A stretch of DNA of 21,882 nucleotides. Origin: Candidatus Hodarchaeota archaeon (GTDB lineage Archaea > Asgardarchaeota > Heimdallarchaeia > Hodarchaeales > Hodarchaeaceae). The stretch spans positions 1 through 21,882 of the forward strand of contig JAEOTC010000160.1 in NCBI GenBank assembly GCA_016840035.1. The letters run 5' to 3'. Positions 7,377-13,072 of this stretch are shown here, one piece after another (position 1 is the first letter of the stretch; each line of letters begins with the position of its first letter). A program made the translations under genes and the position numbers. The notes below the pieces were generated by a model. That model was not told the origin of the DNA. It saw nothing but the letters and a program-made list of their open reading frames with translations, and did no database searches.

Positions 7377-8033
7377 TCAACTTAAACGATAAGTACATTG
7401 CCCTCTATCCTCACAATTCTTACAGCGAGTTTCCCATTTAGACTTCTTGATATTTGTCCCCAGATTTATGGCAAAAGATACTGATTTAATCGGTTGCATC
7501 ATATATCCATCTGATAAAGTAACTCCGATGTCATCAGCAGGCAAATGTGAGAAAAAAATTCTTTGGTCGTTAACACTCCACTGACAATAACCAGGGCTAT
7601 ATCGAGAAGAGAATGAGAGATCTTGTTTTTCTGCAATTTTTGTGATCTCTAGATTGACAAGATCTGCGACCTTTTCTACACCAGCTGATCCAATAGCATC
7701 GAAAATAACACCATCAACATATTTTCCTTCACTCATCAATCTATTTACTTCAGATGGAAGTTTAACTCCGATTGTAACAATTGCTAAAGCAACTTGTTGA
7801 GTTTCTGCAAAACATTCACGTTTAGGGAGATCATTTACACTGAATAACTGAAAAATACCCTTTGGTGACATAAAATCATTAGCAATATGAAGTAATTGAT
7901 CGATCTGCGATTCGAGATCCTTCGGTATTTCTTTCGCTCTTAATTTCTTTGTAAAATTTCCATTTGGTTGAAGATAAGAAATTACATCCTCTTTTTTAAC
8001 CGAAATCTTCTCATAAGTGCGTCTTTGAACCAA
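7377..8033 (-). CDS. Stand-alone B12-dependent methionine synthase activation (SAM-binding reactivation) domain protein
   Basis: VTIG...E, D.IGSA.VE, RYSPGY, IGVTLS..YMM.P.KSVS motifs and a C-terminal CxxCx5C.YR tail. Confidence 0.88.
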   Translation of the reverse strand: MVQRRTYEKISVKKEDVISYLQPNGNFTKKLRAKEIPKDLESQIDQLLHIANDFMSPKGIFQLFSVNDLPKRECFAETQQVALAIVTIGVKLPSEVNRLMSEGKYVDGVIFDAIGSAGVEKVADLVNLEITKIAEKQDLSFSSRYSPGYCQWSVNDQRIFFSHLPADDIGVTLSDGYMMQPIKSVSFAINLGTNIKKSKWETRCKNCEDRGQCTYRLS

Positions 8034-8049
8034 ATTGGAAACCGAATTT

Positions 8050-9489
8050 CTATTTTTTTCCTGATGATAAATATTCTGAAGAGAGCTTGTCTAATTCTTT
8101 TGATCTACTAGCATCTAACTCGACTTGTGGAGGTTTTGCTAAGAGATTATTGATTTCTAGCCTTGCTCTTTTCCGAGAAGATAGTGATCCTGTACTCTTC
8201 CACTGATCACGGGTCATTCTAGCAAGAATTGGACTTGGAAAAAAGAGTTCTTTACGGAACAATTGAAGAGTAGAGGGATGTGATAATAATTCGTTCGTTT
8301 GATCATAATCTTTCAAAATGTCTTCTGCAAACGGAGAACCATAGTCATGTATTCCTTCTACAAATCGTTTTACCATACCTGCAATCTCATTATCGATAAG
8401 AAGTTTTTCAATTGATTGACAAGATTCGAAATCAAGCATTCCGGGGCCTGAAATCATATTTATTCCAGTTAATCCTGCTAATAATGCACCCATCCCAGCT
8501 TCTAAGCCAGCTTGAGCATCAGGAATTTTGGAATCACTCAAACTCATATAAGCATGAGTGGGTAGATTCAAAAATTTGCCCATTTCAGCATCCCCAATGT
8601 CAATCATCATCGTCTCGATTGCCCCCATAGGGGTTGTACCATGTTTCATGTCCATCACTGCGGGAGAACCTCCCCAGATAATTGGTGCACCTTTTTTTAC
8701 TAATTGGGAGATTACAACTCCAGCTAAAGATTCCGCACAATGTTGAGTAATAGATCCTATTAAAGTAATGGGGGCATTTGCTCCTGACATGGGCATACTG
8801 ATAAATTCAGAAGGTATCATTCTTTCCGCAGCATCAATAACCGATTGGGTTGTTAAATCCGACCATGAAAGTGGAGGAGAGGGGCAGGCATCAAAGATAG
8901 CTAATGGTTTCTCGGCTAAATCCTTTTCAGAAGTTCGACATGTTAGCAATAGCTCATTCATTATAGAAAAACTTTCTTTCCTGAATGTTCCTGTCACGAT
9001 TGGCTTTCGACTATACTTAAGTGTAGTGTACAATCGATGCCAGTCCTGAGCATCTTTTGGTACATCAGAATACACTAAAGATGTGCTCTGGGCTTCAATG
9101 TTTGCTAATTGGTCAACTATCTGAGTAAATCGAATAAAATCTTGGTGGAGAGGTTCCCTAATTTCACCTGTCTTTTCATCCAGAATGAAAATCGCTGCTG
9201 ATCCAGGATCAAAGTGAATCTTATCTTCCTTAAGGAATAGATTGGGATTCCCTTCACGATCATACATTGTGATTTCATGAGGGGGATAAGTGAGACATTT
9301 TTTCACTAAGTCAGAGGGAATGAAATAGCGTTGATTTTGATTTGGTACTCCCACTTCCTTAAGAAGAGTCTCAGCATTTTTATTTTCTATTAAAACCCCT
9401 AAAGATTCAAGGATATGAGTTGCTTCTTCAAAAATTTTCTTTTTATATTCCTCATTGAGTAATGTAACCTTTGGTCTTAGAATTCCCAT
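8050..9489 (-). CDS. Trimethylamine methyltransferase (MttB) superfamily protein, non-pyrrolysine type
   Basis: SPPLSW, MPMSGANAPITL.G, AE.LAG...Q....GAP, MDMK.G, G..E, SDSK.PDAQAG.E, GPGML and EKLLIDNE motifs. Uninterrupted 479-aa frame, with Leu (TTG, 8539-8541) at the position aligning with Pyl. Confidence 0.92.
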   Translation of the reverse strand: MGILRPKVTLLNEEYKKKIFEEATHILESLGVLIENKNAETLLKEVGVPNQNQRYFIPSDLVKKCLTYPPHEITMYDREGNPNLFLKEDKIHFDPGSAAIFILDEKTGEIREPLHQDFIRFTQIVDQLANIEAQSTSLVYSDVPKDAQDWHRLYTTLKYSRKPIVTGTFRKESFSIMNELLLTCRTSEKDLAEKPLAIFDACPSPPLSWSDLTTQSVIDAAERMIPSEFISMPMSGANAPITLIGSITQHCAESLAGVVISQLVKKGAPIIWGGSPAVMDMKHGTTPMGAIETMMIDIGDAEMGKFLNLPTHAYMSLSDSKIPDAQAGLEAGMGALLAGLTGINMISGPGMLDFESCQSIEKLLIDNEIAGMVKRFVEGIHDYGSPFAEDILKDYDQTNELLSHPSTLQLFRKELFFPSPILARMTRDQWKSTGSLSSRKRARLEINNLLAKPPQVELDASRSKELDKLSSEYLSSGKK

Positions 9490-9500
9490 TTAACTACATC

Positions 9501-10385
9501 CTAACGACTATCAATTAACGTTCTAATTTTTCGTATGTGAGTAGGTGTTGTGCCACAACAACCACCGACAATTTTTACTCCAAGATCGATCATCTGACCG
9601 ATATCATTTACATAATCCTCAACAGGTTGATCATAAAGAGTATTTCCTCCAGAAAGACGAGGTTGACCTGCATTCGGTTTTGCTGAAATCGGGATATCTG
9701 TCAGATTTACTAGCTCTTTTATGAGTTCAATCATCTGATCAGAACCCAATGTACAATTTGTTCCAATAACATCCACTTTTTCCTCCTCCAGCTTAGTAAC
9801 GCACGTTTCCACCGAATCTCCCATTATGGTGAAAAAACCTCGCGTTTTGGTTTTCCGATAGGTCATGGATGCGATAATTGGCTTTTCAGACACTTCTTTA
9901 ATTCCCTGAATAGCGGCAGACATTTCTTGAAGGTCAGATATCGTTTCAATATGCCATAAGTCAATACCTGGAGCTAAAATTTTAGCTTGTTTTTGAAAAC
10001 CCGCTTTCCACATGTCTCCCGATGCATTTCCAACAGGAGGTCTAAATTCACCAGAGGGACCAATATCTCCTACAATTAAGTTTTCTTCAGAAGGTAAAAT
10101 GGCTTTTATATTATTAATAGCTTCAACATTAATCTTTTGATATAGATTGCTAATATTATGCCTATTTAAACTTACAACATTTGAACTAAAGGTACAAGTT
10201 TGGACCATATCTGATCCAGCATCGTAATAACTAGCTAAAACCTTCTTTACAACCTCAGGATTTTCAATATTAAGTAAATCAGGGATTTTTCCTGGTTCCA
10301 AGTCTCTATTCATTAACTGTGTACCCATGGCACCATCAAAAAGAATTATCTTTGATTTATCTTCTAACCAGTTGGTAAAAAGCAT
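9501..10385 (-). CDS. Homocysteine S-methyltransferase domain protein (stand-alone MetH Hcy-binding module)
   Basis: FDGAMGTQL, YYDAGSD, GDIGPSG, IETI.D..E, GTNC, KPNAGQP and VGGCCGTTP.HI, giving all three Zn-binding Cys. No pterin-binding domain follows. Confidence 0.94.
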   Translation of the reverse strand: MLFTNWLEDKSKIILFDGAMGTQLMNRDLEPGKIPDLLNIENPEVVKKVLASYYDAGSDMVQTCTFSSNVVSLNRHNISNLYQKINVEAINNIKAILPSEENLIVGDIGPSGEFRPPVGNASGDMWKAGFQKQAKILAPGIDLWHIETISDLQEMSAAIQGIKEVSEKPIIASMTYRKTKTRGFFTIMGDSVETCVTKLEEEKVDVIGTNCTLGSDQMIELIKELVNLTDIPISAKPNAGQPRLSGGNTLYDQPVEDYVNDIGQMIDLGVKIVGGCCGTTPTHIRKIRTLIDSR

Positions 10386-10408
10386 TAGGGTTTCACATTA
10401 ATCCTTAA

Positions 10409-11056
10409 TTATTGAATCAATTCCTTAACAAGCTTGACTGATTCTACCGCATTTTCTGCATACCCATCAGCCCCACATTCATCAACCCACCCTTGTGTCA
10501 CAGGAGCGCCACCAAAAATTACTTTAAATTTATTCCGAATATTTTTCTGGTTTAAAAGATCAATCACTTTTTTCTGGTTTACCATAGTCGTGGTTAACAA
10601 TGTTGACACTCCTATAATATCTATATCCCCTTTAATAGCTTCATCAACAATTTTTTCAGCCTTTACATCTGTTCCCAAGTCAACAACTTGAAATCCATTT
10701 GCTTTTAGCATTGTAGCCACGATCGTTTTCCCAATAGAATGAATATCACCTTCGATTGTAGCTAGTAGAACTTTACCTGAAGATTGACGTTCTGAACCTG
10801 ATGACTGCAAACCCGGGGTAATTATGTCAACAGCTTTTTCCATAATTTGAGCTCCAGACATCAATTCCGGAAGAAAGAATTCTCCTTCATCCCAAAGATC
10901 TCCTACTTTTCGAATACCTTCACCAAATCCTTTCTCAATCACTTGTAAAAGATCCATACTTTCATCAAGAGCTTGATTCGCTAAATGAACAGCTTTTTCT
11001 TGATCTAAGCTTACAATGGAATTCGCCATTTCTCTATAAATTTCTTCTGTATCCAT
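10409..11056 (-). CDS. Methyltransferase cognate corrinoid protein (MttC/MtbC-like)
   Basis: Cap domain F..G...VG.LW..GEFFLPEL, B12 motif GDIHSIGK.IV, S.LLTTTM, and GGAPVTQ.W....GADGYAENA. Confidence 0.95.
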   Translation of the reverse strand: MDTEEIYREMANSIVSLDQEKAVHLANQALDESMDLLQVIEKGFGEGIRKVGDLWDEGEFFLPELMSGAQIMEKAVDIITPGLQSSGSERQSSGKVLLATIEGDIHSIGKTIVATMLKANGFQVVDLGTDVKAEKIVDEAIKGDIDIIGVSTLLTTTMVNQKKVIDLLNQKNIRNKFKVIFGGAPVTQGWVDECGADGYAENAVESVKLVKELIQ

Positions 11057-11099
11057 GGTGAGACATTCTCCTTTTCAGCAATTAAGATCAGATGTTGTA

Positions 11100-11465
11100 T
11101 TAATATCTATAGTTTTCCCAGTTAAAATCAATTTCATGAAGAAAAGATTGGAATTCTAACGCACGACCTTCTGGATCCTTTGCAAAAAAATTGTAGATAT
11201 TGTATTTCGTATTCTTCACTGGTTTAGTGGTAGCCAATTCACATAAACTTTGATAGACCTGGTCAACTTCTTTAGTAGTCTGATAAAAGAATGTTAATAG
11301 TCCATCCATACTGATTTCATCTCTTTCACAAAATCCAAATAGAAAATTATCATGTTTGAATATTATGCAATCCCCTTGATCTATCCAAATTTTAGAATTA
11401 AGATTAGAATAAAAATTTTTCATTTTTCCAAGATTTTTTGTCTTTAAGAATAAAATACCAGCCAT
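11100..11465 (-). CDS. VOC (glyoxalase/bleomycin resistance-like) family protein
   Basis: Two beta-alpha-beta-beta-beta-like repeats, 'NL..M..FY', C-terminal FF.KDPEGR.LEF. Strong AGGAGGT RBS upstream (11474-11480). Confidence 0.82.
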   Translation of the reverse strand: MAGILFLKTKNLGKMKNFYSNLNSKIWIDQGDCIIFKHDNFLFGFCERDEISMDGLLTFFYQTTKEVDQVYQSLCELATTKPVKNTKYNIYNFFAKDPEGRALEFQSFLHEIDFNWENYRY

Positions 11466-11588: not shown

Positions 11589-12434
11589 ATGAAATCCCTA
11601 TCAATTCTGAGTCATAAGGGAGGAGTGGGAAAAACTTCAATTGCTGCGAATATAGCAGTGCATCTTGCAAAGATAGGCCAAAATGTATGCCTTCTAGATA
11701 CTGATTTTCATGGTCCGTCCATAATAACCTTTTTTAAGAAAAATCCAGAAACAAAATGGCTCAATGATAATTTACTACGGGATGAACCTCTAGAAAATTG
11801 TCTAGAAGATATTTCTCCTCAACTAGAGGTTTCAGGAAGACTATATATCGGATTTGCAGACCCTTCAGCATCAGCGATTGAAACTAACATAAGAATAAAT
11901 GAAAAAATGTCTTTTAAAATGCTCAAGAATTTGATGAAGATTCGAAAAGAACTAGAAAGTCCCCCGTATGAAGTAACATATCTTATACTTGATAGCTCCC
12001 CGGGTACAACTTATAGTACCGTGAATGCTATGATTACGACTGAAACAAGTCTCTTCATTGTTAAACTTAGCAATGCTGATCTACTCGGTACTTCACAAAT
12101 GATTGCTGGTCTTAATAAGCAATTGAAGAGTAAATCCTTGGTCTTAGCGAACCTCATTCCCAAAAGCGTCATTCAAGATGAAGCAATTATATCCCAAATA
12201 CAGTCACTTATCGAGAATAAATTCACTAAAGAAACACAAGATAAGTATGTCGATTTTATTGGTTGGATTCCGATTGATGAATCGTTAATACAAACGGAAT
12301 TCCTTGAAGCAATAAAGACCTTGCAAAATCAAACCTCCTCCAGACTTATTTACACCCTGAAGCAACCAGATCATCCATTCTCTACAACTCTTGTTGAGTT
12401 AATTCCCACGATTTTCGAGGATAACACCAAATGA
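11589..12434 (+). CDS. MinD/ParA family ATPase
   Basis: Deviant Walker A KGGVGKTS, LLDTDFHGPS, Walker B LILDSSPG, LANL, and WIP.D motifs. Confidence 0.92.
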   Translation: MKSLSILSHKGGVGKTSIAANIAVHLAKIGQNVCLLDTDFHGPSIITFFKKNPETKWLNDNLLRDEPLENCLEDISPQLEVSGRLYIGFADPSASAIETNIRINEKMSFKMLKNLMKIRKELESPPYEVTYLILDSSPGTTYSTVNAMITTETSLFIVKLSNADLLGTSQMIAGLNKQLKSKSLVLANLIPKSVIQDEAIISQIQSLIENKFTKETQDKYVDFIGWIPIDESLIQTEFLEAIKTLQNQTSSRLIYTLKQPDHPFSTTLVELIPTIFEDNTK

Positions 12435-13072
12435 TCGTTTATGCCCTCTACATTATAGATGAAGGAGGAAGACCTTTACTTTCTCAGTATTTCCAATCTT
12501 CGGATGATGTCCCGAATGAAGTGCTTTTTGGAGCGTTATTTACTGCATTTAAAGATCTAGCAGCTGATGTCACAACGCAAAAATCCTGGGAAATGAAAAC
12601 TCTTGGAATAGAAAGATTGTTTTATCATACAAAATCATTTGGGCCATTCAATGTAGTGATCGTAACTAATACTCAAAAAGGCCCTGAGAATCTTCTCCAA
12701 ACAATAGGATTACGGTTTATGAAGGAACATCGAGAGGAAATACTCCAAGATTTCCTCGTAGATTTTAGACTTTTTGACCCGTTTAAGGAAATAATTCAAG
12801 AAATGTTTCAGGCAGAAACTCTCGTAGATGAATCAGGGAAATTATCTCCCACCAAGCGATTTAGCGTGGGGGGAATATTTGATTTACCACCAGATCTACA
12901 AACTACTGCGCTAGCATTAATAACATTGGAAGAGGGAACATTGGAAGATATTTCAAAGGAATGTGGGGAAAATCAAGTACAAACTACTAAATCTCTTAAC
13001 TCATTACAAAAAATGGGATTTATAGGAAGAAAAGAAAAAGAGGGTAAGCAATTATTCTTCTACTCAGCTTGA
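12431..13072 (+). CDS. Longin-like N-terminal domain fused to C-terminal winged helix-turn-helix
   Basis: N-terminus YALYIIDEGGRPLLSQYF...LFGALFTAF...FNVVIVT...LLQTIGLRFMKE...F..F has longin/sigma-adaptin/sedlin-like pattern. C-terminus GTLEDISKECG....TKSLNSLQKMGFIGRK..GKQLFFY is a wHTH. ATGA overlap with parA. Confidence 0.68.
   Translation: MIVYALYIIDEGGRPLLSQYFQSSDDVPNEVLFGALFTAFKDLAADVTTQKSWEMKTLGIERLFYHTKSFGPFNVVIVTNTQKGPENLLQTIGLRFMKEHREEILQDFLVDFRLFDPFKEIIQEMFQAETLVDESGKLSPTKRFSVGGIFDLPPDLQTTALALITLEEGTLEDISKECGENQVQTTKSLNSLQKMGFIGRKEKEGKQLFFYSA

Follow-up and report, generated by a model that had tools for sequence, protein, structure and literature searches.

Williams et al. (2022, PMC9324843) described a gene cluster in Candidatus Electryoneota and diverse bacteria that brings together a homologue of MtgB and MttB lacking pyrrolysine (non-Pyl), a homocysteine S-methyltransferase, a corrinoid protein, and an activation protein, and proposed that it carries out corrinoid-dependent methionine synthesis from an unknown donor. 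Bacteria with this four-gene cassette also hold full-length MetH (PMC9324843). In Ruegeria pomeroyi, genetic work showed that one corrinoid protein, MtgC, serves both the MttB-family enzyme MtgB and a split MetH (Mausz et al. 2025, PMC12478193). In Asgard archaea, MttB homologues have been interpreted as quaternary-amine methylotrophy, tied to MtrH and feeding the Wood-Ljungdahl pathway, a reading in which homocysteine is not involved (PMC11291895). Here, we analyzed a 21,882-nucleotide stretch of DNA from a Candidatus Hodarchaeota archaeon (assembly GCA_016840035.1, contig JAEOTC010000160.1, positions 1 to 21,882; hereafter the window), in which four consecutive minus-strand genes (11056-7377) encode a corrinoid protein, a homocysteine methyltransferase (HcyMT), an MttB homologue, and a reactivation protein. 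With slightly better than even confidence, we read these four genes as a multi-protein, cobamide-dependent methionine synthase that works without a pterin module.

The four genes follow a fifth, co-oriented gene encoding a VOC protein, and the five minus-strand open reading frames are separated by gaps of only 43, 23, 11, and 16 nucleotides, with Shine-Dalgarno-like motifs (GGAGG, GGAGA) 5' of the first two (VOC and corrinoid). An earlier note, made from the sequence alone, had described this five-gene group, and its coordinates, co-orientation, gaps, and module composition agree with ours. Pfam and NCBIfam searches named three of the five products directly (corrinoid protein, homocysteine S-methyltransferase, and MttB-family protein); the reactivation and VOC proteins were recognized through a family profile or homologues and through AlphaFold2 (AF2) models searched with Foldseek.

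To survey related loci, we used the MttB homologue as the query and retrieved 80. The closest (87-90% MttB identity) carry the Hodarchaeota label, in agreement with the Asgard origin suspected from the sequence, and about 50 more at 63-72% identity are labeled Promethearchaeota (Loki), Hermod- or Odinarchaeota. The corrinoid, HcyMT, and MttB genes (hereafter the triad) lie in this order on one strand in about 50 of the 55 Asgard loci. The genes on either side show no relation between loci (HisRS, aconitase, EamA transporter, GDSL hydrolase, POR), and there was no pterin-binding gene among the scanned conserved neighbor families of these loci. The bacterial loci (about 50% MttB identity) belong to metagenome-assembled genomes of Zixibacteria, Aminicenantes, Acidobacteriota, and Eubacteriales; corrinoid, activation, and MttB genes are present in many of them, and at least eight (L064, L073, L078, L079, L080, L082, L084, L088) have HcyMT as the fourth gene. 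The conserved co-localization that the proposal calls for is thus seen both in the triad of Asgard archaea and in the four parts found together in several bacterial phyla. The MttB orthologue was present in 67 of 151 sampled Asgard genomes, with a patchy distribution by family (6/7, 13/17, and 20/29 in some families, 1/32 in another).

The corrinoid protein (11056-10409, 215 amino acids) has a B12-binding domain (PF02310) and a B12-binding_2 cap (PF02607), and belongs to the methyltransferase-cognate corrinoid family of MttC, MtbC, and MtgC (TIGR02370, score 222.8 against a cutoff of 215.3; MtgC model, 205 bits). Its cobamide-binding motif DxHxxG (D104-x-H106-x-x-G109) is invariant in 22 orthologues. 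A tblastn search of the genome from which the window comes (hereafter the source genome) found no second corrinoid protein of the same type, and gave one weak B12-binding match on contig C28.

HcyMT (10385-9501, 294 amino acids) matches PF02574 at 210 bits, and no second PF02574 gene was found in the source genome. Residues D17-G18, E147, and the zinc ligands C211, C276, and C277 are invariant in 22 orthologues, and the three cysteines align with the cysteine motifs of the homocysteine (Hcy) domain of Thermotoga maritima MetH (1Q7M; C207, C272, and C273), placing the protein with the homocysteine-binding module of MetH. That domain is also its best relative in the PDB (162 bits), far ahead of plant-type HMT (54 bits) and BHMT (46 bits). 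The top NCBIfam match is a YitJ-type bifunctional model, at 233.5 bits and under its cutoff of 453. Stand-alone PF02574 enzymes that use S-methylmethionine or S-adenosylmethionine (SAM) as donor exist, and together with the YitJ-type match they raise the possibility that the genes are adjacent without sharing a pathway, HcyMT acting alone on one of these donors in the manner of MmuM or YitJ, or that flux runs in reverse, from methionine to the corrinoid protein. We consider either case highly improbable, given how much nearer HcyMT stands to the MetH module than to HMT or BHMT. Its gene is also flanked by those for the corrinoid protein and MttB, at gaps of 11-23 nucleotides in the window, and order and strand are kept in about 50 loci across two domains of life; for reverse flux an acceptor module is lacking.

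We also predicted the complex of the corrinoid protein with HcyMT, which scored 0.58 against 0.01 for the best control, with at least 84% of contacts agreeing between runs and a partner pLDDT of at least 88. The pass mark used was attained by 58 of 80 solved complexes and by 2 of 110 mismatched pairs; scores of 0.60 or lower were given to just 7 of the 80 solved complexes, yet to both of the passing mismatches. The prediction therefore weakly supports a contact between the two proteins, and its pass may reflect similarity to solved MetH structures.

The reactivation protein (8033-7377, 218 amino acids, TTG start) scored 21.5 bits against PF02965, under the cutoff of 25. As PF02965 is a weak detector that misses the T. 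maritima control, it was replaced by a family profile (A1, 15 members), which matches PDB entry 1J6R at an E value of 2.6e-12; 1J6R is T. maritima TM0269, the stand-alone activation domain of a split MetH. In a Foldseek search, the AF2 model (pLDDT 84) came closest to 1J6R (TMq 0.72), and MetH activation domains made up all of the following 18 matches. The AdoMet motif RxxxGY (R144-x-S-P-G-Y149) is invariant. By family profile, fold, and motif, the protein is a TM0269-type MetH reactivation domain, with Pfam alone falling below its cutoff.

The identity given to this gene in the earlier note is thereby upheld, though within Asgard archaea the gene is confined to certain lineages, and most of the genomes seem to use RamA instead. 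Among the 27 Asgard genomes with the triad, we found RamA in 23 and the reactivation protein in only two (G003 and G020). RamA was not found in the source genome or in its closest relative (G003), whose clusters both include the activation gene. This near-reciprocal distribution suggests that RamA and the TM0269-like protein may be two interchangeable ways to repair a Co(II) carrier. At its C-terminus (window 7377-7440), the reactivation protein has a C-x2-C-x5-C tail (C204, C207, C213) modeled at a pLDDT below 50; the tail is common to the Hodarchaeota orthologue and to those of four bacterial loci (L064, L084, L085, L088), and is missing in others. Possibly, electrons enter through a metal or Fe-S site formed by this tail.

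The MttB homologue (9489-8050, 479 amino acids) is a full-length member of the MttB superfamily (PF06253, COG5598), matching PF06253 at 248.8 bits (cutoff 25) over model positions 29-489 of 500; its relatives in the PDB are MtgB (2QNE, 174 bits) and MttB (7XCL, 165 bits), and no other MTTB gene was found in the source genome. It is not a true trimethylamine methyltransferase: the reading frame is open and has no in-frame TAG for pyrrolysine, its TIGR02369 score is below the cutoff (337.6 against 525), and Leu317 aligns with Pyl334 of Methanosarcina barkeri MttB. This leucine is invariant across 77 orthologues and is also found in Desulfitobacterium hafniense MtgB. In-frame TGA codons in two MttB orthologues from the same genus were dismissed as an artefact, as the match extends beyond the true stop.

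Mutagenesis and a structure of MtgB with glycine betaine in place showed that the substrate is held by Y97 and F356 (cation-pi contacts) and by R312 and H348 (carboxylate); R312 is kept in all characterized family members, each of which acts on acidic quaternary amines (Picking et al. 2026, PMC13080624). When aligned to 9YCE, the positions of Y97, R312, H348, and F356 are occupied here by S97, H312, S347, and E355; these are pairwise alignments at about 30% identity, with a 9YCE numbering offset of 2 that was verified on all four residues. The set S97/H312/S347/E355 is invariant in 77 orthologues, 53 of them archaeal and 24 bacterial. With all four glycine betaine-binding residues replaced, we rejected the identity of the protein as MtgB, subject to the low identity of that alignment. 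Because the active-site signature lacks these residues, the donor is probably not an acidic betaine, and the MttB clade appears, from its sequences, to bind one specific substrate other than glycine betaine. Glycine betaine had been offered as an example donor; we set it aside in view of the invariant replacement and of the betaine transporters BCCT and OpuAC, which were not found in eight genomes (one of them closed). The signature gives a concrete handle for identifying the donor.

At three Loki loci, a second, distant MttB paralogue (about 27% identity) lies directly upstream of the triad (L012:4830-6269, L013:2859-4298, L010:818-2188). In L012 and L013, this paralogue is preceded by an MFS_2 transporter, and the same transporter family occurs near the triad in 11 loci. 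A transporter of this family could be the importer of the donor.

Domain identities, catalytic and ligand motifs, gene order, and the failed search for other routes in the source genome are direct observations; the direction of flux, the contacts between proteins, and the donor we infer. In the proposed relay, the MttB-like TIM-barrel enzyme would move a methyl group from a small N-methyl donor to the Co(I) corrinoid protein, and the MetH-type zinc enzyme would pass it from methyl-Co(III) to homocysteine, yielding methionine. When the cofactor is oxidized to Co(II), the TM0269-like protein would restore the carrier by reductive methylation with SAM and a reductant.

We next searched for other routes to methionine. 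Domain searches of the other open reading frames of at least 90 amino acids in the window found no URO-D (MtbA/MtaA), pterin-binding, or RamA gene, as the earlier note had stated for MtbA, MtgA, and RamA. The source genome (4.3 Mb in 293 contigs, 87% complete) has a single Pterin_bind (PF00809) protein, which is dihydropteroate synthase (DHPS; TIGR01496, 218.7 against a cutoff of 162.6) and scores 24.9 against the MeTr model (cutoff 259). A canonical four-module MetH with an MeTr-type pterin module was found in neither the window nor this genome, and MtrH and MetE were not found in the genome either. MTHFR was not found in the source genome, in G003, in G005, or in a closed Loki genome (G001). 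Among the 27 triad Asgard genomes, none had MeTr above the cutoff, and only weak CdhD-like matches of about 523 amino acids appeared in Loki genomes. PF02574 is present as a single copy in 26 of the 27; the MetE family has no match in 17, and the other ten have weak matches of core-MetE size. With a single PF02574 gene and no MetE in most of these genomes, the triad looks like their only methionine synthase. The source genome has S-adenosylhomocysteine hydrolase, so homocysteine is produced and must be recycled. A search for Mer (TIGR03555) in the source genome gave LLM-family matches only, the best at 158 bits and below the cutoff of 348.7.

The interpretation first put forward, that the cassette is a pterin-free methionine synthase fed by an N-methyl donor, is therefore retained for its modules, for the pterin route that was not found, and for co-localization, and not for glycine betaine or for the VOC gene (discussed below). 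The genome-wide check also agrees with it, with DHPS as the only carrier of Pterin_bind and with MeTr, MtrH, RamA, and MetE not found. The DHPS gene itself overlaps a gene for a CofE-like gamma-glutamate ligase (L003:8898-10576, contig C112), which falls just short of the cutoff of TIGR01916 (180.3 against 180.65) and scores 110.8 against a putative folate gamma-glutamate ligase model (cutoff 350). This pair hints at pterin or folate cofactor synthesis, despite MTHFR not being found in the genome.

To our knowledge, all characterized members of the MttB superfamily act on methylamines or quaternary amines, and this speaks for an N-methyl donor over the main competing account, in which the triad is an ordinary, pterin-dependent split MetH. 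Under that account, which we judge unlikely, a housekeeping enzyme would receive methyl groups from methyl-tetrahydromethanopterin (methyl-H4MPT) or methyl-tetrahydrofolate (methyl-THF), either through a methyltransferase that was unrecognized or unassembled or through the MttB-like barrel itself. It gains weight because the triad looks like the sole methionine synthase in most of the triad genomes, and a housekeeping enzyme is expected to draw on a central metabolite; it loses weight because MTHFR was found in none of the four genomes searched, closed Loki genome included. MtrH in the source genome and MeTr above the cutoff in the triad genomes were likewise not found, while Mer-like proteins below the cutoff and the weak CdhD-like matches of Loki genomes remain on its side. 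Also in its favor are the active site, which does not vary between Archaea and Bacteria and is not betaine-like, and the structural relatedness of the TIM barrels of MttB, MeTr, and the MetH pterin domain (PMC9842639). The presence of full-length MetH beside the cassette in bacteria (PMC9324843) argues instead for a different donor.

A further account, which we think quite unlikely, holds that the genes form a dual-purpose or mainly catabolic methylotrophy module resembling MtgBCDE, in which MttB and the corrinoid protein demethylate a quaternary amine to gain carbon or energy, the methyl group mostly reaches a C1 carrier by way of a partner whose gene lies elsewhere, and HcyMT is a side branch. 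The published reading of Asgard MttB homologues (PMC11291895) points this way, as do the second MttB paralogue upstream of the triad in L010, L012, and L013 and the MFS_2 transporter in the latter two. The cluster, however, has no methylcorrinoid:pterin or methylcorrinoid:coenzyme M methyltransferase, and the homocysteine enzyme is its strictly conserved partner. MeTr above the cutoff was not found in the source genome or in the 27 triad genomes, nor MtrH in the source genome. Four URO-D homologues of the source genome were considered as MtaA/MtbA partners and rejected on context only, as none has a corrinoid-protein neighbor. Locus L108:5500-7790 (contig C228 of the source genome) encodes a 452-amino-acid URO-D homologue with a C-terminal thioredoxin-like extension, whose gene overlaps the start of a gene for a CobW/HypB-type GTPase; no corrinoid protein was found near it.

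Several points weigh against a pterin-free methionine synthase. The active-site mapping was made at about 30% identity, and an invariant F354 adjoining E355 could replace F356 of MtgB as the aromatic contact. Recognized betaine transporters were not found in the eight genomes noted above. In MtgBCDE, the one relative that has been characterized, methionine synthesis depends on the pterin subunit MtgD (PMC12478193), and we found no biochemical or genetic test of the four-gene cassette in the literature. The Mer-like F420 oxidoreductases below the cutoff conceivably leave methyl-H4MPT as the methyl source, with the MttB-like protein as its user. Finally, because the source genome is 87% complete, its missing portion could hold a pterin methyltransferase, MTHFR, or MetE.

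The VOC gene (11465-11100, 121 amino acids) had been counted as one of five cassette genes, and our comparison of loci removes it from the conserved set. The protein itself has no Pfam or NCBIfam match, but 33 of its 47 homologues match PF00903 (Glyoxalase), and its AF2 model (pLDDT 96) has glyoxalase/bleomycin-resistance (VOC) structures as top PDB matches (TM about 0.74); the predicted paired beta-alpha-beta-beta-beta fold places it in the VOC superfamily. A VOC gene is found near the cassette solely in the closest relatives and at none of the Loki loci. In both L009 and G122, an opposite-strand gene stands between the cassette and the homologue, which is situated about 1.5 kb upstream. Because it is confined to the closest relatives and is split off there by that gene, we did not count it in the system, and it is probably peripheral to the methionine-synthase machine. 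A VOC paralogue with 64% identity over the first 50 amino acids, cut by the contig end, lies elsewhere in the source genome (G000:C75:2-151, minus strand), directly downstream of a URO-D-family (MtaA/HemE-like) gene (C75:216-1364, minus strand; locus L107). Small VOC-family genes thus stand beside methyltransferase-type genes twice in this genome.

The remaining open reading frames of the window encode a thiolase, a deoxynucleoside kinase, an ABC-2 transporter, a flavoprotein, ParA, a saccharopine dehydrogenase, a GH3 enzyme, an M48 peptidase, and amidohydrolases. The divergent ParA/MinD-type ATPase gene overlaps by 4 nucleotides the gene for a protein bearing a C-terminal winged helix (11589-13072, plus strand), and this pair appears to be unconnected with the cassette. 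The sequencing runs that match the stretch are of marine-sediment DNA only, with no RNA run listed.

If the proposed relay is true, many uncultured anaerobes would make methionine and run the SAM cycle independently of folate or methanopterin C1 pools, and these organisms, including Asgard archaea near the eukaryotic ancestor, would depend on cobamides and on another methyl donor. This would bear on nutritional dependencies in sediment, on the cultivation of Asgard archaea, and on the substrate range of the large, mostly uncharacterized non-Pyl MttB superfamily. A bolder and more tentative extension, which we offer as a possibility we would not bet on, is that the triad is the only methionine synthase in many Loki- and Hodarchaeota-type Asgard archaea and that its MttB-like subunit uses one donor that is not an acidic quaternary amine, perhaps an endogenous metabolite. 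Were this true, it would represent a new class of methyl donor for methionine and a new class of substrate for the MttB superfamily.

How far the cassette resembles known systems can be judged component by component. The earlier note knew of no characterized system of this composition. The cassette indeed remains uncharacterized, but the same cassette and the same hypothesis were published in 2022 (PMC9324843), and the related MtgBCDE system was characterized genetically in 2025 (PMC12478193). Our literature search found no paper on an Asgard triad with the homocysteine enzyme and none that joins the phrase "folate-independent methionine synthase" with MttB. What the present analysis adds is the negative genome-wide evidence on pterin routes, the reciprocity of RamA and the activation protein, the peripheral position of the VOC gene, and the invariant active-site signature that is not betaine-like.

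MetH, including the split form of T. maritima (TM0268 and TM0269; 1Q7M and 1J6R), shares with the cassette homologous Hcy, cobalamin-binding, and AdoMet reactivation modules with their motifs kept. It differs in that the cassette has no pterin (methyl-THF) module, with an MttB-family protein in its place, and in that every module of the cassette is a separate polypeptide. BHMT and the MesA-MesD enzymes (Price et al. 2021, PMC7857596) resemble the cassette in that they need no methyl-folate to make methionine. Corrinoid proteins are the presumed source of methyl groups for MesA and MesB (PMC7857596), although MesA-MesD belong to the MetE family and not to PF02574. BHMT uses an N-methyl donor directly, binding betaine itself with no corrinoid, whereas HcyMT of the cassette matches it at just 46 bits. 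In the glycine betaine:THF system of D. hafniense (MtgB-MtgC-MtgA) and in the MtpB, MtcB, MtyB, and MthB systems of Eubacterium limosum, a non-Pyl enzyme of the MttB superfamily likewise loads an MtgC-like corrinoid protein, but the acceptor enzyme there is a THF methyltransferase, where the cassette has a homocysteine methyltransferase. The MttB homologue also differs from characterized MtgB-type enzymes (PMC13080624) at the binding site, with R312 replaced by His and Y97 and H348 by Ser.

MtgBCDE of R. pomeroyi, Phaeobacter inhibens, and Sinorhizobium meliloti likewise has an MttB-family enzyme (MtgB), a corrinoid protein (MtgC), and a stand-alone homocysteine module (MtgE) that share one cobamide carrier, and it couples demethylation of an N-methyl donor to methionine synthesis. 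It is an aerobic, bacterial system with glycine betaine as donor, MtgD, reactivation by RamA and DUF1638, and genes that are often dispersed. The Hodarchaeota cassette differs in its MetH/TM0269-type reactivation and in not keeping the glycine betaine-binding residues; neither an MtgD-type protein nor RamA was found in the source genome, in which DUF1638 was not searched for. The cassette of Williams et al. (2022) has the same four components, here adjacent and co-oriented in the window, and its MttB clade is likewise non-Pyl and apart from MtgB and MttB. The differences lie in gene order, with the activation gene after MttB in the window, and in genomic background, as the Hodarchaeota case is archaeal and without detected MetH, MetE, or MTHFR, so that the cassette may be its sole methionine synthase, whereas the bacteria also have MetH. 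Most other Asgard genomes keep the triad only, with RamA in place of the activation protein. The Hodarchaeota cassette is therefore an archaeal example of an arrangement already proposed for bacteria, and not a new kind.

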